From Candidatus Dormiibacterota bacterium (GTDB lineage Bacteria > Chloroflexota > Dormibacteria > Aeolococcales > Aeolococcaceae), in the NCBI GenBank assembly GCA_049279755.1, contig JBAPOS010000134.1:1-52236 (forward strand): a stretch of 52,236 nucleotides of DNA. Direction: 5' to 3'. The position numbers and the translations under genes are program-made. Shown here piece after piece: positions 29,317-39,474 of the stretch (positions are counted from its first letter, which is position 1; every line of letters begins with the position of its first letter). The notes beneath the pieces were generated by a model. It was given only the letters and a program-made list of their open reading frames with translations. It did not search any database and was not told the DNA's origin.

Positions 29317-29466
29317 ATGGACGCGCCGGCTCCATACATCCACTGGGGCTTCATTCTCATCTCCCTGCCGAACTTCATTCTCATCTGTGTGATGGTGCTG
29401 CTGTTCGTGATTGCGCTCGTCGCGCCGTTCCCGTCGCATCGGCAGAAGGAACCCCACGATGACTGA
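29317..29466 (+). CDS. Small membrane protein (49 aa), below the ORF-track size cutoff
   Basis: GGAGG (29306-29310) lies 6 nt before ATG 29317. Hand translation: MDAPAPYIHWGFILISLPNFILICVMVLLFVIALVAPFPSHRQKEPHDD. The stop (29464-29466) overlaps the cytochrome b start (ATG 29459). Confidence 0.55.
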   Translation: MDAPAPYIHWGFILISLPNFILICVMVLLFVIALVAPFPSHRQKEPHDD

Positions 29467-30136
29467 CGACGCCGCACCGGTGACCGTCGACCCGTCGGTC
29501 GCGACCGCGCCGTCCGACTTGGACGATGAGAGCGGATGGACGGCCTCTGTACGCCGCCGTGTGGAGAAGACGCTGCCGATCACCGAATTGCTCCCCACCA
29601 AACAGCCGGCGTACATTGGCTCCTGGGTCTACGTTTTCGGTGTCGTGACCATTGCCGCGCTTTTCTGGTTGGTGATCAGCGGCGTGGTCCTCGCATTCTT
29701 CGGGTCGGCGTGGTGGCATGTGTCATCGGTCGGCCATTTCTTCAACAGCACCCACTTCTGGTCTGTCCAGATGTTCTTCATCTTCATGGTGCTCCACCTC
29801 TGGGGGCAGTTCTGGGGAGCCGGTTGGCGTGACGGGAGAGCCAAGACCTGGATGGTGGGTGTCGTGATCTTCTCGATCAGCGTGGGCACGGCTTTCACTG
29901 GATACGTGATCCAGCAGAACTTCGACTCGCAGTGGATCGCGATCAATGCCAAGGACGCGATCAACTCGACCGGCTTCGGTGGGCTCTTCAACGCACTCAA
30001 CTTCGGGCAGATGTACGGGCTGCACGTGATGCTGATGCCGATCGGCGTGACCCTGCTCGTGGTGCTGCACATCATTCAGGTGCGAGCCAAAGGCGTGGTT
30101 CGGCCGATCGACGATCCTTTCCAGGTGGCGCCGTGA
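29459..30136 (+). CDS. Cytochrome b, N-terminal (b6-type) di-heme domain protein
   Basis: In-frame ATG 29459 of ORF 29411..30136. Two His pairs are present: HFWSVQMFFIFMVLH (13 residues between) and HVMLMPIGVTLLVVLH (14 residues between). That spacing matches the b6/Firmicute type. Confidence 0.8.
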   Translation: MTDDAAPVTVDPSVATAPSDLDDESGWTASVRRRVEKTLPITELLPTKQPAYIGSWVYVFGVVTIAALFWLVISGVVLAFFGSAWWHVSSVGHFFNSTHFWSVQMFFIFMVLHLWGQFWGAGWRDGRAKTWMVGVVIFSISVGTAFTGYVIQQNFDSQWIAINAKDAINSTGFGGLFNALNFGQMYGLHVMLMPIGVTLLVVLHIIQVRAKGVVRPIDDPFQVAP

Positions 30137-31137
30137 AGGCGTCCAAGGTCGACAAGAAGACCTACTACCGCGGGATCCGGATGATTCCGTACGACCTCCT
30201 GAAGGAGGTCACGATCGCGATGCTCGGCGTCCTGGGAGTCGTGTTGCTGCTTTCAGCAGTGCTGTCCTCCCCCGATGTGCCCTCGGTGACGTTGCAGAGC
30301 TGGTCGAAAGCTAATCCCGTCGACTTCCTGACGACCGCTTCCGGCGAGCTCGCCGGCTCTACTGTTGTGGCCGGATATGGACCGCCTTACAACTCCGGGA
30401 CCGGCTCGGCGCAGAGCTGGGGCCCCCTGGCTCCCGAGCAGTGGGCGGGAGTGCACATTCCCATCAACGCTCCCAATGACTTCGTGCTCCAGCCACTCAC
30501 CCAGGCGACTGCCGGGGATGCGAACCTCGCGTCGGCGTTGACCACGTACAAGGCTGCAACGAGCGATCAACAGCAGAAATGGCTCACGAGTTACACGACC
30601 GCACTCGGTACTGCAACCGTCGCCGCGGACGGTACTGTGACGGTTCCCTCTGGGGACTTCGGGCCGGTGACGGTGCTCATGGATCGCATGCTCACGCTGG
30701 CCAGGTCTGGCGGTTTGGACGCGCTCCTGCTGACCAGCGACCACTTCTATCAGACGGATTTCTCCCGGGCGCTGTTATTCCTCGATGACGGCGGCTACAT
30801 CGCCGACCTCGCAACCCAGCAGAAACTCATCGGTAGCGACTGGGGTGTGATGAACGAGACAGGCCGCTATCCGGGGTCAGCATGGCTCTGGCTGTATACG
30901 ATGTGGTACCAGATTCCGCCTTTCAACTCGGCTACCGGATTCCTGGGCATCAGCGCTGCCAACACCGACCTGGCGGTTGTTGGCGTGATGCTCCTGCTGA
31001 CCGTGCTTCTCATGCTGGTTCCCTTCATTCCCGGCCTGCGTGATATCCCGCGTTGGATCCCGATTCACAGGCTGATCTGGCGCCGTCATTACGCGGAGAT
31101 GCGCCGAACTGGTGCCACAAACACCATGCAGCAATAG
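30133..31137 (+). CDS. Membrane protein, possibly a cytochrome b C-terminal / subunit-IV-like partner with a large extracytoplasmic insert
   Basis: The GTG at 30133 overlaps the cytochrome b stop (GTGA). Layout: N-terminal TM, a soluble region of about 230 aa, then C-terminal TMs. GSAWLWLYTMWYQIPPF is loosely reminiscent of the PEWY region. The functional call is tentative. Confidence 0.5.
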   Translation: MKASKVDKKTYYRGIRMIPYDLLKEVTIAMLGVLGVVLLLSAVLSSPDVPSVTLQSWSKANPVDFLTTASGELAGSTVVAGYGPPYNSGTGSAQSWGPLAPEQWAGVHIPINAPNDFVLQPLTQATAGDANLASALTTYKAATSDQQQKWLTSYTTALGTATVAADGTVTVPSGDFGPVTVLMDRMLTLARSGGLDALLLTSDHFYQTDFSRALLFLDDGGYIADLATQQKLIGSDWGVMNETGRYPGSAWLWLYTMWYQIPPFNSATGFLGISAANTDLAVVGVMLLLTVLLMLVPFIPGLRDIPRWIPIHRLIWRRHYAEMRRTGATNTMQQ

Positions 31138-31562
31138 AGGATCACAGCGATTGCGACGTGCATGGCCATCAAGACGCCGACTGCGTCCGCGGGCTGACCG
31201 CGGACGAGCAGCCATGCGTCTGGTAGGAACAGCGCCATGCTCGCTAGGACCATGAGGCATCCATAAAGCGCGCGAGGTGCGGAACTGATGCGCGTCAGCA
31301 GGGGCCAGCCTGCGGCACCGCCGAGGACGCCGATGATCGTGAGCTTCGCGTAGTCGTCGAACCGGAAATGCTCGTATCCCGCGGTTCCCGGAAAGACGCG
31401 CGTGCCGATGGCGACGAGCATCGCGTCGGCGGCCAGCGACCCGACCATTGCGACCATGGTTGCCACCGCCACCCGCATCGGCGTCGGTTGGCGGTGAGAC
31501 GGCGCCCAATCCAGGCGAGCGATCGCCAGGGTGCGATCGATCAACGAAACCTCTGCCCTCAC
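31089..31562 (-). CDS. Hypothetical 4-TM membrane protein (157 aa)
   Basis: GTG start at 31562. Hydrophobic segments throughout. The 3' end overlaps the preceding plus-strand gene by 49 nt. The 21-nt element lies 23 nt upstream. Confidence 0.55.
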   Translation of the reverse strand: MRAEVSLIDRTLAIARLDWAPSHRQPTPMRVAVATMVAMVGSLAADAMLVAIGTRVFPGTAGYEHFRFDDYAKLTIIGVLGGAAGWPLLTRISSAPRALYGCLMVLASMALFLPDAWLLVRGQPADAVGVLMAMHVAIAVILYCCMVFVAPVRRISA

Positions 31563-31585: not shown

Positions 31586-31606
31586 CCTTGCGGAACGGTG
31601 AAGGCC
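31586..31606. repeat. 21-nt conserved element, copy 1 (CCTTGCGGAACGGTGAAGGCC)
   Basis: Identical to 36361-36381 in the same orientation. It lies in the divergent region between the 4-TM gene (start 31562, minus) and the OmpR-type regulator gene (start 31668, plus). Confidence 0.9.
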
Positions 31607-31667: not shown

Positions 31668-32342
31668 ATGCATCTCCTCGTCGCTGAAGACGACGCGAAG
31701 CTCCGGGAGGTCCTTGCGCGGGGGCTTCGCACTGCGGGTTACACAGTCGACGTCGCTGCGCGTGGGGATGAGGCGCTCGAGCTGCTCCTAGAGAACGGCT
31801 ACGATGCAGCGGTTGTCGACTGGCGGCTGCCCGTCATGGATGGCATCGACGTCGTCATCGCGATCCGTTCCCGGCATCGATCCACCCCGGTGCTGATGCT
31901 CACGGCCCGCGACACACCGTCGGACCGTATTCGTGGTCTCGATGCGGGGTGCGACGACTACCTGGTCAAACCGTTTGACTTCCAGGAGATGCTCGCTCGT
32001 CTCCGCGCCCTGATGCGCCGCCCCGCAGCGACGCTCGGCGTGCGCCTTCGCGCCGGAGCGCTGAGCATCGATCCAGCGGAGCGATTGGCATCGGTGGACG
32101 GCGTCCCGCTGGCGCTGACGCCTACAGAATATGCGATCGTCGAGCTGCTTGTGCGCCGGAGCCCCGCGGTGGTGAGGCGAGAAACGATTGCAAACCATGC
32201 GTGGACGGATGCCCTCGACCCGATTGCGTCCAACAGCATCGACGTTCACGTCACCAGGCTGCGTGCCAAACTGGTTGGTGCGGGTCTCAGGCTTGAGGCG
32301 GTTCGGAGCGTCGGCTATCGGCTCGTGGAGCGGGAGTCGTGA
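31668..32342 (+). CDS. OmpR/PhoB-family response regulator
   Basis: MHLLVAEDDAKLREVL...AAVVDWRLPVMDG...LMLTARD receiver domain plus a winged-helix C-terminus (LTPTEYAIVELLVRR...VHVTRLRAKL). Confidence 0.9.
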   Translation: MHLLVAEDDAKLREVLARGLRTAGYTVDVAARGDEALELLLENGYDAAVVDWRLPVMDGIDVVIAIRSRHRSTPVLMLTARDTPSDRIRGLDAGCDDYLVKPFDFQEMLARLRALMRRPAATLGVRLRAGALSIDPAERLASVDGVPLALTPTEYAIVELLVRRSPAVVRRETIANHAWTDALDPIASNSIDVHVTRLRAKLVGAGLRLEAVRSVGYRLVERES

Positions 32343-33562
32343 GCACGCGACTGAGCAGGCATGCCCTGCGTGTTGCGCTCATCACAACAGCGGTGGTCGC
32401 CGGAGTCATGGTCGCGCTCTGCGTCGCGATCGACGTGATCGTGGCCCAGACACTCCGCTCGTCCGCCACCACACGCCTCACCAGCGAACTTGCACAATTG
32501 TCACAACGTCGCGGTGGACCAAATCTCGTGGAGCCCGACGTTGATGATCCCGTGCTTGTCTGGGAAGTGAACAACGCCGGCGCCATCGTCGCGTCCACGG
32601 CGGGAGCGCCAGTGCTCCCCTCGGGCGAGTTCGCCGCAAGCACACCCTCCGAGACGCAGATTGACGGTGCTGACATCCTGATCGCCGGTGTTGGCATTCC
32701 CACCGGCAGGCTCGTCGGCGCCGTGAGCCTGGGTAATGAGTCGAAGGCGCTCACGGCCCTGACGATCACCGAGGCCATCGTTGTACCAACCATCCTGGTC
32801 CTCGTGTTCGCGGGTGCGTTTGTGGTCGGGCGGCAGACGGCGGGACCGATCGAACGAGCGCGTCGGCGTCAACTCGAATTCACCGCTGACGCATCGCACG
32901 AGTTGCGCACGCCTCTCGCGGTGATCGAGGCCGAGACGACGCTTGCGCTGGCGACTCCCGAACGTACTGGCTCTGATGACGCCACGCTCCGCCGTGTTGC
33001 AGACGAGACGCACAGGATGCGCGCCATTGTCGAGGATCTGCTCTGGCTCGCTCGCTTCGACGCGCTGCCCCCCGATCCGGTCACGGAGCCCGTCGATCTC
33101 ATCACGGCGGCGGACGTTGGTGTGCAGCGGTTCATATCCATCGCCGGTCAGGCGCGGTTGCATCTCCAGAATCGCAGTGATGGAGCGGCGCTCGCCCTGG
33201 TCGACGCCCCCGCGGACTGGATCGATCGACTCATCGGCGTGCTACTCGACAACGCGTGCCGGTATACGCCGGCGAACGGCACGGTGAGCATCGTGGCATC
33301 GCGTGAGCGCGACCACGTGCGCCTGACCGTGAGCGACACCGGTCCGGGCATTCCGCTGGAACGGCGTGCGCGCATCTTCGAGCGGTTTCGCCGGGGGACG
33401 AGCGACGGTGGCGGAGCAGGACTCGGCCTCGCGATCGGTAATGCCATTGTGGAAGCGACCAAGGGTCGCTGGCAGATCGCGGACGTGCCGGGCGGCGGAA
33501 TCTCAGTCGGAGTCGTCTGGGCGCACTCGCGCACCCGGCTCGTCGATGGATTCCACCCATAG
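32339..33562 (+). CDS. Sensor histidine kinase (2 TM, HisKA, HATPase_c)
   Basis: 4-nt overlap with the regulator gene. H-box FTADASHELRTPLAVI. N/G boxes LLDNACRYTP, SDTGPGIP, GGAGLGLAI. Confidence 0.9.
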   Translation: MSTRLSRHALRVALITTAVVAGVMVALCVAIDVIVAQTLRSSATTRLTSELAQLSQRRGGPNLVEPDVDDPVLVWEVNNAGAIVASTAGAPVLPSGEFAASTPSETQIDGADILIAGVGIPTGRLVGAVSLGNESKALTALTITEAIVVPTILVLVFAGAFVVGRQTAGPIERARRRQLEFTADASHELRTPLAVIEAETTLALATPERTGSDDATLRRVADETHRMRAIVEDLLWLARFDALPPDPVTEPVDLITAADVGVQRFISIAGQARLHLQNRSDGAALALVDAPADWIDRLIGVLLDNACRYTPANGTVSIVASRERDHVRLTVSDTGPGIPLERRARIFERFRRGTSDGGGAGLGLAIGNAIVEATKGRWQIADVPGGGISVGVVWAHSRTRLVDGFHP

Positions 33563-33748
33563 GGCGGCCCTGGGACAGTCGGCAATTGCACGACGGGCGT
33601 GGTCGAGCACGTCATCGGAGAGCGCTCGCTGGTCGATGACGGGATACCCCCAGTCGTCCATCCGGATGCGCTCCGGGAACAGCTCGCCACACATGCCGTG
33701 CGCCTTGCACTTGATCGGATCGACGCGCAGTCGAACCCTCACCACCAA
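33503..33748 (-). CDS. Small ferredoxin (single-cluster type)
   Basis: VDPIKCKAHGMCGELFPE...AIADCPRAAL is the Cys pattern of actinobacterial 3Fe-4S/4Fe-4S ferredoxins. Its start overlaps the NuoF-like gene stop by 10 nt. The 3' end overlaps the kinase gene by 60 nt. Confidence 0.7.
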   Translation of the reverse strand: MVVRVRLRVDPIKCKAHGMCGELFPERIRMDDWGYPVIDQRALSDDVLDHARRAIADCPRAALWVESIDEPGARVRPDDSD

Positions 33749-35025
33749 CCGGCCTCTGTTGCAGGCACGGGCAGCAGCGGTCGCTGTCCTGAATACCTGC
33801 AGGGACCGCTCTTGAGGTGATGGCGAAGATCTGCTGCAAAGACCTCCATCGCGCTGGAGAGGAAGAGCATCGCCCCATCCGGATGCCTGCAGGCGCCCCG
33901 GCCGCGGATGTCGTGCGACCAGCGGACGAGGAGGTCCAGCGCAGCGGGGCGGGCTCGGCCGGTTGCCACCTTGTGGAACGTCTCAGCTATTGCCGGAAGG
34001 CCCACATGGCAAGGTCCGCACTGGCCCGCGGTCTGACTGGCGAGAAACGTGAGTACTCGATCAGTCTCGCTGATCCCGCACGTTGAGGCCGTTGCGACCA
34101 CGAGCACGCCGGTGCCCAACGAAACGCCGACGGATTGCAGAGAGTGCGCGTCGATCGTCTTGCTCCATATGCGATCCGCCGCGACCCATCGGCCGAAATA
34201 CCCACCGAGCAGCACCGTCGCCGGCTCGCCGTCGACACCACCGGTCCGGTCGACGATGGCCCCGACGGTGGTGTCGCACGTCGCCTCGAGGACGCCCGGT
34301 GTTCGCACCGCCCCACTGACCGTCAACAGTGCGGTCCCAGGCGATCGCGGCGTGCCGACCGATCGAAACCACGGTGCACCGAAGCGGGCGATGAGCGCTG
34401 CATGGGCGAGCGTCTCCACGTTCTGGACAAGGGTCGGCAGGCGATCGACGCCGCTTTGAAAGGGACGGGGAGGGACAACCTTCGGCTTGGCGAGATGGCC
34501 GGAGAGGCGCGCGACCAACGCTGTCTCCTCGCCGGCGACGTATCGGTTCGGCCCGACCAGCACCTCGATGAATCGATCGTTGTCGTCTCGCCGCCTGCGC
34601 TCCCTGATCGCCGCGCTCAGCGCCGCCTCCACGTCGCTGTGGGACTTCGTCGTATAGATGACCACGCGTCGAGCACCGACCGTCTCCGCTGCGTGCTCGA
34701 GACCGTCGAGCACAAGGTGAGGCCGGTAGGTCAGCAGGAACCGATCCTTGAAGCTCGCCGGTTCGCACTCGGCGGCGTTGGCGACCACGATCGCGTCGCC
34801 ATCGCGCTTCGTGTGTTCCTTGACCGCCCGCCACTTTCGGCCGGTCGGAAAGTCGGCCCCGCCGCGCCCGCACAGTCCGCTGGCGTCGAGGGCGTCGAGC
34901 AGCGCACTCGACTCCGGTTGCGGACGCGGGCCGAAGCTGGCGAGGTGCGCGTCCAGGTCCTCGGGAACCGGACGCTGCGGGAGCAGACGATGGGCGGGGT
35001 TGCCGACGTCGATCGAGAGGCTCAC
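33739..35025 (-). CDS. NuoF-like flavoprotein (NADH dehydrogenase subunit F-type FMN/NADH site, SLBB, 4Fe-4S region) without NuoE/NuoG partners
   Basis: ORF 33739..35112 trimmed to GTG 35025, which overlaps the stop of the upstream gene (GTGA). GLCGRGGADFPTGRKW resembles the NuoF GRGGAGFPTG motif. SQTAGQCGPCHVG is the Fe-S region. Confidence 0.75.
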   Translation of the reverse strand: MSLSIDVGNPAHRLLPQRPVPEDLDAHLASFGPRPQPESSALLDALDASGLCGRGGADFPTGRKWRAVKEHTKRDGDAIVVANAAECEPASFKDRFLLTYRPHLVLDGLEHAAETVGARRVVIYTTKSHSDVEAALSAAIRERRRRDDNDRFIEVLVGPNRYVAGEETALVARLSGHLAKPKVVPPRPFQSGVDRLPTLVQNVETLAHAALIARFGAPWFRSVGTPRSPGTALLTVSGAVRTPGVLEATCDTTVGAIVDRTGGVDGEPATVLLGGYFGRWVAADRIWSKTIDAHSLQSVGVSLGTGVLVVATASTCGISETDRVLTFLASQTAGQCGPCHVGLPAIAETFHKVATGRARPAALDLLVRWSHDIRGRGACRHPDGAMLFLSSAMEVFAADLRHHLKSGPCRYSGQRPLLPVPATEAGWW

Positions 35026-36041
35026 GCTGTTGCCTTCTGCGTCGTGAGCGTTCCGCCAATCGCGCCGTTGCCCTCGTCGACGATCTGGATCGCGGCGAGC
35101 ACGCCGCCGCACCGGGCGGTGACCGAGGTGTTGCCGATCGTCGCCGCCGACTGGCAGACCTGTCCACCCGATCGGGTGACCGTGAGCGTCCCGCTGCCGT
35201 CGGCATTGGCGACGATCACGAGTTGGAGCGCATGGTCACGCGTATCGGTGAGAGTGGCGGTCGCATGGGTGGGCGAACTCACCAACGTACCGATGAGTGG
35301 ATCGTTCAGACCGGCGGGGAGTTGCGTCACCGGAGCGGGCGCAGTCGTGGGCGCAGCCCCGGAGCGTGCCAGCAGATCCGCCGGAGTGCCGGCCGCCTTG
35401 GCCCAGCCATGCTGCAGAGGGCCGACGGCCATCCAGACGATCAACGCACCGATGGAGACGACGCTGCCGGCGATGCCCAGGAAGCGCAGGGCGGTGAACC
35501 TCGGCCCGGCGTGCGCAAGGCGCCAAACCAGCGCGGCAATAACGGCCGCCACGCAGACGGCGACCAGACCCATCGCCCAGAGCGACTTGGTGTCCGTCCC
35601 CGTTCCCAGGCCGTGGACCACGCCGACCGGCCAGCTCGCGTACGCGAAGAGGTGCACTCCCCGCCACGTCCGCCAGCCGAGCCGGTGCCGTACGAGACTC
35701 GTCGCGGTGATCGCAATCAACAACTCGAATCCGACCACCCCGAGGCCGAGCCACACGGGACGGTACGACGCGATGAAGGGCACGAACGCGTCGAGGAAAT
35801 TGAGCTTCGCGAATGGGTCGATAATCGACGTGAGGATGTGAATGACGAGAAACAAGCCAACCAGCAGTGAGACGTTGCGATGCAACGACTGGACCACGAA
35901 CCTCGGCCACTCAGGGCGGCTCTCACGCGACGACGTCAATACCCCCAGAACAACGCTGGCGCTCAGGAGGATGAGGGCGGTGTAGCCGCTGGCACGGGTG
36001 GCGTACCACATCGGGGTGGGGCCGGCGAGTGCCGCTAGCAA
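35022..36041 (-). CDS. Ferric-reductase-like (YedZ/MsrQ-type) di-heme transmembrane protein with an uncharacterised C-terminal domain
   Basis: Six hydrophobic segments. His pairs sit in SLHRNVSLLVGLFLVIHIL and GVHLFAYASWPVGVVHGLG. A C-terminal, non-hydrophobic region of about 110 aa has no recognised family. Confidence 0.7.
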   Translation of the reverse strand: MLAALAGPTPMWYATRASGYTALILLSASVVLGVLTSSRESRPEWPRFVVQSLHRNVSLLVGLFLVIHILTSIIDPFAKLNFLDAFVPFIASYRPVWLGLGVVGFELLIAITATSLVRHRLGWRTWRGVHLFAYASWPVGVVHGLGTGTDTKSLWAMGLVAVCVAAVIAALVWRLAHAGPRFTALRFLGIAGSVVSIGALIVWMAVGPLQHGWAKAAGTPADLLARSGAAPTTAPAPVTQLPAGLNDPLIGTLVSSPTHATATLTDTRDHALQLVIVANADGSGTLTVTRSGGQVCQSAATIGNTSVTARCGGVLAAIQIVDEGNGAIGGTLTTQKATA

Positions 36042-36053
36042 CGGACGGCCCGG

Positions 36054-36338
36054 TCAGGATCCGCCGGAGACTGTCACGGGCGCACCGTAGCCGTACTGCG
36101 GCGCTTGGATCGGTGCGCTGATGCCCGGTTGCGTGATGCCGCCGTTGTCGGTGACACCTGGCTGGGTGGCCGGCGTCGTGGTAATCGTGTGGCCGGGAAG
36201 GCTGGTCGCCGCCACGAGCGCAAACACCGCGGTGAATGCCGTCGCCCCGACTGCTGTGCAGATAGTCAACCTGCGCGCGCGGGCCAGGCCGAGGTCCCTT
36301 CGAAGGCGGGCGGAATCCAACTGCGACTGTCGCGGCAT
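36054..36338 (-). CDS. Small membrane-anchored/exported Thr-Pro-Gly-rich protein (94 aa)
   Basis: ATG 36338. Arg-rich N-terminus, one TM (ICTAVGATAFTAVFALVAA), then TTTPATQPGVTDNGGITQPG... It ends 12 nt before the ferric-reductase-like gene. The 21-nt element lies 22 nt upstream. Confidence 0.5.
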   Translation of the reverse strand: MPRQSQLDSARLRRDLGLARARRLTICTAVGATAFTAVFALVAATSLPGHTITTTPATQPGVTDNGGITQPGISAPIQAPQYGYGAPVTVSGGS

Positions 36339-36360: not shown

Positions 36361-36381
36361 CCTTGCGGAACGGTGAAGGCC
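36361..36381. repeat. 21-nt conserved element, copy 2 (CCTTGCGGAACGGTGAAGGCC)
   Basis: Identical to 31586-31606. It lies between the GT87 gene stop (36407) and the start of the 94-aa gene (36338). Confidence 0.9.
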
Positions 36382-36406: not shown

Positions 36407-37789
36407 CTAAGGCACCGAGAGCGCGCGCTCCCGGGTGAGTGTCTGCAGGGTCGGGGCGTCGGTCGGCTCCACGCGGTGCCGCAGGGTGATGGTCAGCGCC
36501 ACCAGCATCGCCGCTGCGGAGATCGCCGGGAGCGATGTCACCTGGGTGAGCAGCCACCACCAGCCGGTGTGGCTGAGTGCGACCAGCTGCGCCGAGGACG
36601 ACACGTTGGCGATCAGCACCGGCGCGAGCACTGCGACTGCGACCACGAACGTTGCGGTCGCCACCGTCAGCACACGTGAGCGCCACGCCCTGTCCGCTGC
36701 CATGAGTCCCACTGCTGCGAAGACGATGATGATCGCGGTCACGTAGTGCGCGTACCAGGTGATCGTGCTGGCGAGCAGCATGAAGAGAGTCCCGGCAGCG
36801 AACTCGGCGCCGCTGACTGCTTGGTTTCGAGTCCGGGGGCCGACGCCGAAATAGAGCAAGCCAAGCATGATGATGAGGACCGCATAGGTCACCAGGCTGA
36901 TCATCAGCGAACCTGATTGCGGGATCAGGACGGCGTGTCCAAAGAGACGGCTCGCAACTCCGCTGATCGACTGGTTGTACAGCCACCCGTCCTGCGCGGA
37001 GAGCACGGGGAGCACGCGGGTCACGTACTCATGCAGTGTTGCGGTTCCGAACGCGGCGACGCCGACTGCGAGTCCGGCAACGACTGTGACGGCACACGCC
37101 GCAGCCGCCCTCCACCACCGGCGGCGGATGATCAAGACGACCATGACAATCGGTGCGAGCTTGATCGAGGCCGCGATGCCGATCAGCACGCCGAACCGCG
37201 TCCGGTGCTCGTGGGTCCACGCATGGAGCGCGAACGCGAGCAACAGGAAGATCACGGGATTCATCTGACCGTGCCAGTAGTTGTACGTGGCCGCCGAGAA
37301 CAGAAAGGTGACCAGCGCGCTGATCTCGAGACGCGGCCACCCTCGAGGCAACAGCGTGTAGGCCGCAATGCCCGTGGCCGCGGCGGTACAGGCGACGGTC
37401 AGCCAGAGCCAGAGCGTCGCAGCGGCAGCCGCCGGAACCCAGGCGAGCGGCTGAACGAGAAAGGCGACGACCGGTGGGTAGTCGAATCCGCTCAGGGCCA
37501 CATTTGGCCGCTGGTGGATGAATTGTGCGTACAGGTCAGTGTGACTGGCGACGGCATGAGCGGCCGCCAGATAGGCGCTGAAATCCTCGAATTCGCCGGC
37601 AAAGATGCCCCTGATGGGTGCGATCACGAAGGTGATCAGGCCAGCTATCACCGAGGCGATCGCGGCGGCACGGAGCACGAGCAATCCCAGTGCGCGGGCG
37701 CGGGCATCCGGACGAAACCGACGGTGGGTTCCGGCGGGGCCGCCCGTGCCGGGCAGGCTGAGGTGTCCTGGGTCGATAACCTCCGCCAT
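36407..37789 (-). CDS. GT87-family (DUF2029) polyprenol-phosphate-sugar-dependent glycosyltransferase
   Basis: ORF 36407..37888 trimmed to ATG 37789 (MAEVIDPGH...). It is a multi-TM protein with FDYPPVVAFLVQPLAW near the N-terminus, as in mycobacterial mannosyltransferase-like GT87 proteins. Confidence 0.7.
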   Translation of the reverse strand: MAEVIDPGHLSLPGTGGPAGTHRRFRPDARARALGLLVLRAAAIASVIAGLITFVIAPIRGIFAGEFEDFSAYLAAAHAVASHTDLYAQFIHQRPNVALSGFDYPPVVAFLVQPLAWVPAAAAATLWLWLTVACTAAATGIAAYTLLPRGWPRLEISALVTFLFSAATYNYWHGQMNPVIFLLLAFALHAWTHEHRTRFGVLIGIAASIKLAPIVMVVLIIRRRWWRAAAACAVTVVAGLAVGVAAFGTATLHEYVTRVLPVLSAQDGWLYNQSISGVASRLFGHAVLIPQSGSLMISLVTYAVLIIMLGLLYFGVGPRTRNQAVSGAEFAAGTLFMLLASTITWYAHYVTAIIIVFAAVGLMAADRAWRSRVLTVATATFVVAVAVLAPVLIANVSSSAQLVALSHTGWWWLLTQVTSLPAISAAAMLVALTITLRHRVEPTDAPTLQTLTRERALSVP

Positions 37790-37917
37790 CAACGGTCGAG
37801 TTTGATCGGGGTACGGGGTGCCGCGTGCCCTGGGTTGCCAAACCGTTACTCGGGTCGCCCAATGTCGTAGGCCCATGTAAAGATGCACGCCATGCGTCGT
37901 GGTCCCAGGATGACGCC

Positions 37918-39474
37918 GTGGTGAGCCGGCGACCGTGGTGGCGCAACCGATTCGCCTATGCTGTCACCGCCTTGGGGGCCCTCGTCGCCGCCCTCTATCT
38001 CTACAGAATCGGCAGCGATCCGCCCGGGCTCTACGCGGATGAAGCCAGCATTGGCTATAACGCGTGGACCATCGCGCACTACGGAACCGACCAGTATGGC
38101 AACCACCTTCCGTTGTTCTTCGTGGACTTCGGAGACTACAAGGGTCCGATCGCGACCTATCTTGTGGCGCCACTGACATGGGTCTTCTCGAGCGGGGCTG
38201 CAGTCGTGCGTCTGCCGAGTGTCCTGGCGGGTATCGCAATCTCCCTGGTGGCCGGGCGCATCGCTTTCGTGCGCACGCATTCGATGCTGGTGACGCTCGT
38301 CACCATCGCGTTCACGGCAGTGCAGCCATGGATCTTCCTGCAAAGCCACACGATGCTCGAGGGAAACATCCTCATGGTGCTCTGCGTCACGTGCGCTTGC
38401 TGGTGCATCGCCGAAGCCGATGTCGAGGGAGCGTCAGCGAGATGGTGGACCGGCGCGGGCGTGGCTCTGGCGATCTGCATCTACACGTACTCGATCGGTC
38501 GACTCCTTGCTCTGCTGATCGCTGGAGTTGTTGTGCTGAGCTTCGCGCGAATTGGTCGAGACAAGCTCCTTCGGTTCCTCTTCCCGATCGCCGCCGCGTA
38601 CGTGGTCCTGGGCATCTGGTCGTTCGAGAACCCCGGAGCCTTGCTCGGGCGCTTCCAGAGCGTGGGTCTCTTCGCCGACCATCCGTCGATCGTCAGCGCC
38701 GCGGTGACGTTTGCCGGCAACTACCTGAGCTATTTCAGCCCCAACTTCCTCGTCCTGCACGGTGACGGGAACCTCCGACAGACGACTGGATTCGGGGGCG
38801 TTCTGGCTGACGCCACCATCCCTCTCATGATCATCGGCGCGGTCTGGCTCGCAGCGAGGCGACGAACAGCGTACGCGCGGTTCGTCATGCTCGGTGCGCT
38901 GGTCGCTCCCGTACCCGCTGCGCTGACACTGTTCGCACCGCATGCGCTGCGTGGCGCCGGGCTGTTCCCGTTCCTCATCCTCATAATGGTGGAGGGAACG
39001 TCCTGGGTATGGACGCAGTTGCGGACGCACCTCGTGGTCGCCATCGCGCTCGTCGCCATCGTGCTCGCCAGCGCCACGCCGTACTTCGTTGATTTCTTCG
39101 GCGGCTACCCCGCCCGCGCCGAGGTCGGATTCGAAGCCGGTGAAGGACCGGCGCTGGCGATGGCGTACACCGACGCCGCTGCCGGGGGGCACCGGCTGAT
39201 TCTCTCTGCGGCGCTCAACCAACCGATCGTGCAACTCATGTACGCGGTTGGGGCGGCTCCACCCCAGCGCGACTTTCTGCGGCGGGCTCGGATCACCGAG
39301 GTCGCCACGTTGGCACAGCTCGATACCGCGGAGCCCGGGGATGTGCTCGTCATCGGTCCCCGCGACACTCCGCCGCCACGCGCCCATCTCCTCTTCGTGG
39401 TCAATGGCGGACGGATCGTCCGCGCCCCCACCACCGTGTCCAGCCTTGATCTCCTCCGCGTCTACCAGGACTGA
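37918..39474 (+). CDS. GT-C fold glycosyltransferase (ArnT/PMT, GT39/83-like)
   Basis: In-frame GTG 37918 of ORF 37825..39474 (start uncertain). First-loop acidic motif YADEASIGYNAWTIAHYGTDQYGNHLPLFF. Many TM segments, and a soluble C-terminal domain of about 120 aa. Confidence 0.65.
   Translation: MVSRRPWWRNRFAYAVTALGALVAALYLYRIGSDPPGLYADEASIGYNAWTIAHYGTDQYGNHLPLFFVDFGDYKGPIATYLVAPLTWVFSSGAAVVRLPSVLAGIAISLVAGRIAFVRTHSMLVTLVTIAFTAVQPWIFLQSHTMLEGNILMVLCVTCACWCIAEADVEGASARWWTGAGVALAICIYTYSIGRLLALLIAGVVVLSFARIGRDKLLRFLFPIAAAYVVLGIWSFENPGALLGRFQSVGLFADHPSIVSAAVTFAGNYLSYFSPNFLVLHGDGNLRQTTGFGGVLADATIPLMIIGAVWLAARRRTAYARFVMLGALVAPVPAALTLFAPHALRGAGLFPFLILIMVEGTSWVWTQLRTHLVVAIALVAIVLASATPYFVDFFGGYPARAEVGFEAGEGPALAMAYTDAAAGGHRLILSAALNQPIVQLMYAVGAAPPQRDFLRRARITEVATLAQLDTAEPGDVLVIGPRDTPPPRAHLLFVVNGGRIVRAPTTVSSLDLLRVYQD

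Follow-up and report, generated by a model that had tools for sequence, protein, structure and literature searches.

A Dormibacteria operon of the MsrQ-like, NuoF-like kind as a candidate NAD(P)H-driven electron-export module with a putative flavin-tail carrier

Gene clusters built around an MsrQ-like di-heme membrane protein have been catalogued in bacteria, and 31 of those listed by Meheust et al. (2021) also contain a NuoF-like gene, a group treated there in one sentence with NAD(P)H as the inferred donor (PMC8238504). Clusters of this subtype pair a PF01794 di-heme protein with a PF10589 NuoF-like protein taken as the NAD(P)H oxidiser (PMC8238504, PMC11334425), and extracytosolic electron transfer has been proposed for them (PMC8238504); our literature search found no paper besides PMC8238504 naming MsrQ-like and NuoF-like together. 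Here we describe a tightly packed four-gene operon (36338-33503, minus strand) encoding a small protein, a ferric-reductase-type membrane protein, a NuoF-like flavoprotein and a ferredoxin, located in a 52,236-nucleotide (nt) stretch of DNA, hereafter the window, from a Candidatus Dormiibacterota bacterium (contig JBAPOS010000134.1, assembly GCA_049279755.1). The operon shares the PF01794 and PF10589 proteins with the described clusters, and apbE is found in many of its orthologous loci and in a paralogous module of the source genome (contig C140). Judged on sequence and predicted structure, it is somewhat more probable than not that the locus serves the NAD(P)H-driven export of electrons across the membrane, as a module of the MsrQ-like, NuoF-like subtype with a flavin-tail carrier. 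The class itself is catalogued (Meheust et al. 2021), and the window operon is a variant of it, without apbE in cis and with a lineage-specific outer beta domain, an altered iron-sulfur (Fe-S) site in the NuoF-like protein and a conserved operator, and in Dormibacteria rather than Actinobacteria (compared with PMC8238504).

Other described systems share parts of this arrangement. The NADPH oxidases (NOX; SpNOX, PDB 8qq7/8qt6) and the STEAP/FRE reductases (STEAP1, PDB 8ucd) have in common with the membrane protein the six-helix ferric-reductase domain, its His pairs at 14/13 spacing and a route that takes electrons across the membrane from a nicotinamide cofactor in the cytoplasm. In place of the fused FNR-like FAD/NADPH dehydrogenase domain, however, the present locus has a separate NuoF-like protein with flavin mononucleotide (FMN) and Fe-S sites and a ferredoxin, an extra sixth helix is predicted to place a beta domain outside, and an ApbE/tail pair is attached. 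With NuoF/Nqo1/NDUFV1 and the NuoF-type subunits of HydABC, HoxF and formate dehydrogenases, the NuoF-like protein shares the Complex1_51K, SLBB and NADH_4Fe-4S architecture, the Gly-rich FMN loop and the acidic NADH-site residues, but it has no NuoE/NuoG partner, Ala as the first cluster Cys, a GRGAC[RH]HPDG motif, Cys316 and a score far below the NuoF equivalog. Extracellular electron transfer in Listeria (Ndh2, EetA/B, FmnB, PplA) likewise delivers NADH electrons to a surface-tethered, ApbE-type flavinylated protein, as proposed here, but by way of the quinone pool and FMN_bind domains on a lipoprotein, whereas the present locus has hemes, a NuoF-like protein, a ferredoxin and a tail without a folded domain.

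Pfam and NCBIfam profile scans of the window proteins assigned families to three of the four operon products above the Pfam cut-off (Ferric_reduct, Complex1_51K/NADH_4Fe-4S and Fer4_15) and found none for the small protein. An earlier reading made from the letters alone (the sequence-only reading) had described tight coupling of the genes, and the coordinates of the open reading frames (ORFs) bear this out, with a 12-nt gap after the small gene, a GTGA overlap between the membrane-protein and NuoF-like genes (35025-35022) and an overlap between the NuoF-like and ferredoxin genes. For comparison, 79 loci were collected from a scan of species-representative genomes, and their six-frame ORFs were searched with the window proteins. 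They derive from Dormibacteria, other Chloroflexota, Solirubrobacterales, Streptosporangiaceae, Acidimicrobiia and other Actinomycetota, and the order membrane protein, NuoF-like protein, ferredoxin is conserved in all 79 where the contig permits; synteny in relatives, set beforehand as a test of the electron-conduit reading, thus holds across Dormibacteria, Chloroflexota and Actinomycetota. The first three relatives (L001, L003, L005) have an identical gene order at 54-73% identity. A close relative of the membrane protein occurs in 51 of 151 sampled genomes of the same GTDB phylum as the source, and in 13 of 16 in the same-class sample, the source genome being counted among the 13. An affiliation with Actinomycetota, suggested from the letters, held in one respect, in that the gene family does reach that phylum, and failed in another, as close relatives bear NCBI titles naming Candidatus Dormibacteraeota/Dormiibacterota. 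Overall the operon is real, and its interpretation as an electron conduit is supported by these sequence comparisons.

The small first-gene product (36054..36338, minus strand, 94 amino acids [aa]) is the candidate flavin-tail carrier. It has seven Lys or Arg residues in its 24 N-terminal aa (..ARLRRDLGLARARRLT..), a hydrophobic stretch at residues ~25-45 and an uncharged, Pro/Thr/Gly/Gln-rich tail of about 50 residues that ends V-S-G-G-S-stop (36057-36071). Homologous small ORFs are present in relatives, where gene callers often missed them, and 76 of the 79 loci have, ahead of the membrane-protein gene or of apbE, an ORF that terminates exactly in [ST]-G-[GA]-[ST]-stop (SGGS 63, SGAS 7, TGGS 5, TGAT 1), preceded by Val, Ile or Thr in 73 tails. 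As a background, 22 of 39,566 ORFs of at least 40 aa in the source genome share this ending (5.6e-4), three of which have the tail architecture: the window gene, an orphan tail gene (C120:6158-6454) and a tail gene whose stop overlaps apbE by ATGA (C129:345-1870). The family begins with an Arg-rich motif (..ARxRRDxxLARxRR..) followed by a single hydrophobic stretch, and its linker is hypervariable, with 32-128 residues in most loci (median 54) and 70-90% Pro/Thr/Ser/Gly/Ala/Gln. The possibility that the small ORF is a GC-rich artefact was rejected, since both the N-terminal motif and the C-terminus are conserved across phyla. A further ORF upstream of apbE in the source genome (C140:1695-2327) has a membrane stretch and a Pro-rich tail and ends ...CSGGGGGGGGGGGDN in place of SGGS; it may be a diverged tail copy or reflect an assembly slip in a poly-G run.

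The link to flavinylation comes from the neighbourhood of these tails. In about 35-40 loci the tail and membrane-protein genes are separated by an apbE gene, which in 32 of these loci begins no more than 27 nt from the tail-gene stop, often overlapping it. ApbE flavinylates the last residue of D-x-x-[ST]-G-A-[ST]; a 7-aa tag suffices, works best at the terminus, and tolerates Asp-to-Ala in a model substrate with little effect (PMC12052999), while experiments on FMN_red proteins have confirmed flavinylation at unstructured C-terminal sites (PMC11334425). The synthetic flavin-tag (Tong et al. 2021, cited in PMC12052999) and the FMN_red sites (PMC11334425) share with the present tails a short ApbE motif, an unstructured terminus and attachment at the last Ser/Thr, but they keep the Asp and Ala and naturally stand beside a folded flavin-binding domain, whereas here [VIT]-[ST]-G-[GA]-[ST]-COOH stands on a fold-less protein. 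An FMN_bind substrate, as MsrQ-like clusters are expected to have (PMC8238504, PMC11334425), was detected neither among the window genes nor in eight family membrane proteins scanned, so that the tail, which has no folded domain, is the sole motif-bearing candidate found. Given the fixed [ST]-G-[GA]-[ST] end and the adjoining apbE, the tail is probably a flavinylation site without a folded domain. More tentatively, and at somewhat less than even confidence, we propose that the small protein is a natural "flavin tag", fold-less and membrane-tethered or secreted, in which [VIT]-[ST]-G-[GA]-[ST]-COOH would be the only functional element; FMN would be attached in the cytoplasm by a signal-less ApbE, the protein exported by twin-arginine translocation (Tat) and reduced by the di-heme protein, and a leash of 32-128 residues would let the flavin reach acceptors in the envelope or outside.

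Where the modified tail would reside depends on ApbE and on the N-terminus of the tail protein. In all but one of the 32 loci the ApbE domain starts 9-19 residues into the protein (41 in the exception), with no hydrophobic segment, and the Pfam model matches the C129 ApbE from residue 11, i.e., it is signal-less as well. If the operon ApbE has no signal, flavinylation should be cytoplasmic, and a flavin outside would need export after modification. The lack of a signal peptide or membrane anchor in ApbE also fits an improbable alternative, that the tail, once flavinylated, remains cytoplasmic and links the ferredoxin to the inner heme like the FAD of NOX and STEAP, and enzymes of the ferric reductase domain (FRD) family do normally set their flavin against the inner heme, as is general knowledge from NOX and STEAP structures. 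Such a location is at odds with the charge asymmetry of the window protein, whose seven Lys or Arg residues before the hydrophobic stretch and none after it predict the N-terminus inside and the tail outside, with a Pro/Thr/Ser/Gly-rich composition typical of envelope linkers, and with an Arg pair (RR) that precedes this stretch in 60 of 73 tail proteins. This RR lies within 12 aa of the stretch, and TatC is present in the genome, so that Tat export or Tat insertion of the tail protein appears plausible from the sequence.

The membrane protein (36041-35022, minus strand) has 339 aa with a TTG start. Database entries hold a shorter, 329-aa form beginning at an ATG at 36011; residues 1-10 (..GPTP..) are conserved in relatives, with P8 and T9 in at least 90% of them, which makes the upstream TTG start and the 12-nt gap credible. 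Its membrane domain (35421..36041) comprises six helices with His54/His68 and His130/His143 and matches Ferric_reduct (PF01794) over residues 19-139 at 36.9 bits against a cut-off of 28 (E 4.4e-9). The AlphaFold2 (AF2) model (pLDDT 83.8) has helices at 10-37, 47-74, 95-116, 123-151, 154-176 and 180-206, of which helices 2 and 4 (47-74 and 123-151) carry the His pairs in the NOX-type di-heme 14/13 spacing. All four His residues are invariant in 77 aligned sequences, and a PDB search with the family profile gave as its sole match SpNOX, the NADPH oxidase of S. pneumoniae, in which WRxxH...H aligned with H130/H143 (weak, E 2.1). The test of these residues as heme ligands thus came out in favour of the ferric-reductase pattern recognised in the sequence-only reading, and they fit two putative stacked b hemes. 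Judged from homology to the NOX topology, the helices with the His pairs are predicted to run from inside to outside, with the Arg-rich loops (38-47 and 117-127) inside and helix 6 leading the C-terminal part out. The loop after helix 6 (residues 207-220) bears an outer motif, GPLQxGWA[KR]xAGTP, in at least 90% of the 77 sequences.

The best Foldseek matches to this model are SpNOX, STEAP1/2, NOX2 and DUOX1, with probabilities of 0.72-1.00 (0.89-1.0 for SpNOX, STEAP and NOX2) and a TM on the target of at most 0.51, and SpNOX, STEAP and NOX2 need no outer flavin. These matches bring forward what we regard as an unlikely reading, in which the same NAD(P)H-to-heme conduit operates with a flavin-free small protein (serving in structure or assembly, or else a peptide that is secreted or glycosylated) and the acceptor reduced directly by the outer heme is O2, giving superoxide in the manner of NOX, or Fe(III)/Cu(II), in the manner of FRE/STEAP. 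It would agree with the absence of apbE from the window operon, with the deviation of the tail from the canonical Asp and Ala, with a paralogue on contig C99 that has the three core genes, no outer domain and no adjacent tail gene seen, and with a two-component system nearest to the heavy-metal CusRS/CopRS subfamily (below cut-off). Nevertheless, it leaves unexplained why a four-residue C-terminus is fixed across phyla amid a hypervariable tail, and why apbE is translationally coupled in 32 loci with no recognised FMN-binding domain found in the eight membrane proteins scanned. We retain a flavin-tail carrier as the preferred reading.

The C-terminal part of the membrane protein, about 110 aa that the sequence-only reading could not assign, has now gained a predicted fold, while neither a family nor a solved relative was found for it. 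Residues 238-339 (35025..35330, minus strand) modelled alone give a confident eight-strand antiparallel beta fold (pLDDT 92.3, pTM 0.83), which by its topology is predicted to lie outside the membrane. The pair C296/C311 is invariant and fits a disulfide, consistent with an outside location. Against PDB folds, the domain alone reached at best E 0.03 and TM 0.43, with weak matches to the up-and-down beta proteins FABP, galectin and TbpB, and neither FMN_bind nor another Pfam family was found at E values up to 1 in the window protein and eight relatives. A profile search of 1.84 billion cluster representatives returned 52 matches, nearly all ending proteins of ~340 aa; a few matches in giant proteins, generic Ig-like or prealbumin-like repeats, were discarded as a functional lead. 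Relatives in Actinomycetota have a different, Cys-free outer domain of ~150 aa, which may be distantly related to the Dormibacteria type according to an end-to-end hhalign comparison (prob 53%, E 1.4e-4), and a third group of membrane proteins has no outer domain. The beta domain is therefore lineage-restricted and, being absent in one group and different in Actinomycetota, an accessory rather than a core part.

Membership in the same Pfam family, together with the source annotation as "methionine sulfoxide reductase heme-binding subunit / YedZ", would also suit a true MsrQ-type system that feeds a periplasmic reductase (MsrP-like or other) encoded elsewhere, for the repair of oxidised envelope proteins. 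We consider this very improbable. Across the 79 loci, conservation of partners extends to the NuoF-like protein, the ferredoxin, ApbE and the tail gene rather than to MsrP, and no molybdopterin oxidoreductase stands beside the gene in the window or in the neighbour lists of L001, L003 and L005, MsrP not having been scanned across all 79 loci. Moreover, E. coli MsrQ is reported to have a different His pattern, which we count against such a role.

The NuoF-like flavoprotein (35025-33739, minus strand, 428 aa; Complex1_51K 132 bits, NADH_4Fe-4S 65 bits) gives a full-length alignment to the 51-kDa subunit/Nqo1 as well as to hydrogenase and formate dehydrogenase subunits of the NuoF type (E about 1e-49), and scores far under the NuoF equivalogs (TIGR01959, 232.3 vs 558.65; NF010120, 198.5 vs 389). 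Among 79 members, G53, G55, G56, F59, P60, K64, E86, E88, K93 and D94 as well as Y162, E166, E167, N202 and E204 are invariant or nearly so. The FMN loop GRGGxxFPxGxK is kept, and the Asp of NADEGEP is replaced by Ala or Ser. The FMN/NADH residues, whose absence on alignment would have told against NAD(P)H oxidation, thus line up with those of the complex I 51-kDa subunit/Nqo1. The sequence-only reading was right about this nucleotide/FMN motif; its intact Fe-S Cys cluster did not stand, because the first Cys of ESCGQCTPC (here QTAGQCGPC, Ala333) is Ala in 74 of the 79 members and Cys in none. The remaining three canonical Cys of cluster N3 (C336, C339 and C379) are conserved, and a family-specific C316 occurs in 78 of the 79 members and H381 in 68 of the 79, the latter within GRGAC[RH]HPDG. 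From this pattern C316 and H381 are candidates for the fourth cluster ligand, and Ala333 with the conserved C316 and H381-P382 may point to a NuoF-type fold whose cluster site is rearranged. The claim that no NuoE partner is encoded nearby proved correct, in that the NuoE domain (PF01257) is absent from the window and from the neighbourhoods of relatives L001, L003 and L005, and the single match in the genome lies on another contig (C230).

Since NuoF-type sites are reversible in principle, as established for complex I, electrons could also be imagined to flow inwards, from an outside donor to ferredoxin or NAD(P)+. This is barely credible; the b hemes of FRD proteins are usually far more positive than NAD+/NADH, so that energy input would be needed, and no energy-coupling part is encoded in the loci.

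The last gene (33503..33748, minus strand) encodes a single-cluster ferredoxin of 79-81 aa, depending on whether it starts at TTG 33748, GTG 33745 or GTG 33742, the last of which would make a second GTGA overlap. It matches Fer4_15 at 33.5 bits (Pfam cut-off 22.4) and has the motif C14-x2-H17-x2-C20...C58-P, i.e., three Cys and a His. This C-x2-[H]-x2-C...C-P motif occurs in 77 of 77 family ferredoxins, with the His in 72 and exactly three Cys in 76. Ferredoxins with such a pattern usually hold a [3Fe-4S] or His-ligated cluster. The ferredoxin and kinase genes are convergent, with 3' ends overlapping by 60 nt (33503-33562), and in relatives L005 and L001 the called genes overlap by 60 nt and 108 nt, respectively.

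Taken together, the preferred reading of an export module could operate as follows. NAD(P)H would reduce the FMN of the cytoplasmic NuoF-like protein, and electrons would pass from its cluster to the ferredoxin, the inner heme and the outer heme. Outside, they would reach FMN covalently bound to the last Ser of the small protein, which would be N-terminally anchored and extend a disordered tail of ~50 residues whose V-S-G-G-S matches the core of the ApbE site. A signal-less ApbE would add the FMN in the cytoplasm, in the case of the window operon acting in trans, and the RR-bearing N-terminus may allow export of the small protein by the Tat route. The tethered flavin, which may dock on the GPLQxGWAxxAGTP loop or on the outer beta domain, would hand its electrons to an acceptor. 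The course from cytoplasmic NAD(P)H through flavoprotein, ferredoxin and b hemes to an outside acceptor, as put forward in the sequence-only reading, withstood the three refuting tests that were run, namely synteny, the FMN/NADH residues and the heme-ligand His.

Several observations weigh against this scheme. Neither an apbE nor an FMN_bind gene was found in the window's cluster, and the source genome has its three apbE genes all outside the window; the cluster definition of PMC8238504 (PF01794 with apbE/FMN_bind) takes in the C140 module and loci such as L041, L043, L047, L053 and L054 and misses the window operon, which does belong by its NuoF-like (PF10589) gene to the subtype described there. 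The window tail lacks the Asp of the canonical ApbE motif (none at -6), and the Ala position is taken by Gly in 68 of 76 tails. The signal-less ApbE requires export after modification, suggested by the RR motif alone, and 13 of 73 tail proteins are without RR. The Fe-S site of the NuoF-like protein is short of one canonical ligand, which makes the type and even the presence of its cluster uncertain. The Foldseek E-values of the membrane domain are weak (best 3.9e-3, ranging to 0.17), as is its PDB sequence match (E 2.1). Finally, no acceptor is encoded in any locus examined.

Dedicated regulation of the operon by the adjacent OmpR-type two-component system had been suggested together with a 21-nt element, and both parts gained support. 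The element (GGCCTTCACCGTTCCGCAAGG) is real and present in two identical copies, with no other in the genome at up to 3 mismatches. The copy at the operon head (36361..36381, minus strand) is followed by 10 nt, TAGGCT (36350-36345), 6 nt and the ATG, and the second (31586..31606, minus strand) by 10 nt, TACGCT (31575-31570), 7 nt and the GTG of a DUF6069-like gene, in a divergent region shared with the regulator gene. Of 36 Dormibacteria loci checked, 33 have a core, CTTCACCGTTCYGCAAGG, ~45 nt ahead of the small gene, and 29 have it, in the same orientation, between the regulator gene and the DUF6069-like gene; this conservation at both promoters in most close relatives is what argues for dedicated regulation. 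TA[GC]GCT would represent a -10-like hexamer, and the spacing suggests activator-dependent promoters of leaderless transcripts. A reading as an extracytoplasmic function (ECF)-type promoter (GGAAC, plus strand) was rejected, because it is the minus orientation alone that precedes a gene, both at the two copies and in the relatives. The OmpR-type system would then probably switch on the operon and the DUF6069-like gene through the element at two probably leaderless promoters.

The response regulator (31668..32342, plus strand; Response_reg and Trans_reg_C) belongs to the OmpR family, with the heavy-metal CztR/SilR/CopR subfamily as its best NCBIfam match, below cut-off. The sensor histidine kinase (32339..33562, plus strand; HisKA and HATPase_c) has two predicted membrane helices around an outer loop of ~105 aa, and its best NCBIfam matches, RppB and the CusS/CopS subfamily, all fall below cut-off. 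A kinase/regulator pair stands near most loci, either convergent downstream as in the window or co-directional upstream. The DUF6069-like membrane protein (31089..31562, minus strand, 157 aa) matches PF19545 with E 3.2e-5 and 24.5 bits, below the cut-off of 27.2; its gene is likewise placed next to the regulator in L001 and L005 and is a probable second member of the regulon. Next to it, window positions 29411-31137 hold a cytochrome b-like gene (Cytochrom_B_N_2/Cytochrome_B, E 2e-11) and then a gene for a 334-aa protein without family, a pair also found beyond the DUF6069-like gene in L005, which may be a second heme module travelling with the regulon.

Two more modules of membrane protein, NuoF-like protein and ferredoxin are present in the source genome. 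That on contig C140 (2382-6170) consists of apbE, a membrane protein with the same outer domain, the NuoF-like protein and ferredoxin, and that on C99 (155-4370) of a regulator, a kinase, a 194-aa membrane protein without outer domain, the NuoF-like protein and ferredoxin. A fourth, weaker Ferric_reduct gene lies beside an apbE with an N-terminal extension of ~270 aa (C32:11722-13891). Just upstream of the tail gene in the window (36407-39474) are a GT87-like gene and a second large multi-pass membrane gene, an adjacency absent from L001 and L005; with the Thr/Pro-rich tail, this GT87-like neighbour makes glycosylation of the tail conceivable. Four loci labelled Candidatus Saccharimonadales or Acidiferrales (L021, L039, L041, L042) have 57-83% identity to the Dormibacteria operon and the same neighbours, and these bins are probably mislabelled. 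At two Solirubrobacterales loci (L061:1153-2982, L073:1277-2887), a protein of 536-609 aa, for which no Pfam family was found, is encoded upstream of the module, flanked by the regulator and kinase genes.

To our knowledge, known ApbE substrates bear their flavin on or beside a folded flavin-binding domain, and a fold-less flavin-tail carrier is not described in the literature searched. If true, a tail-only carrier would widen what counts as a flavoprotein and explain the apparent lack of a substrate in these apbE clusters. Dormibacteria, other Chloroflexota and several orders of Actinomycetota would then share an undescribed extracellular electron transfer, driven by a NuoF-like protein and ferredoxin in place of the quinone pool, and the module would offer compact heme, Fe-S and flavin parts for engineered electron export. 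Dormibacteria are abundant, uncultured bacteria of soil and permafrost, and a regulated, NAD(P)H-driven exit for electrons would be relevant to the ways in which they shed reductant or reduce extracellular metals, humics or oxygen.

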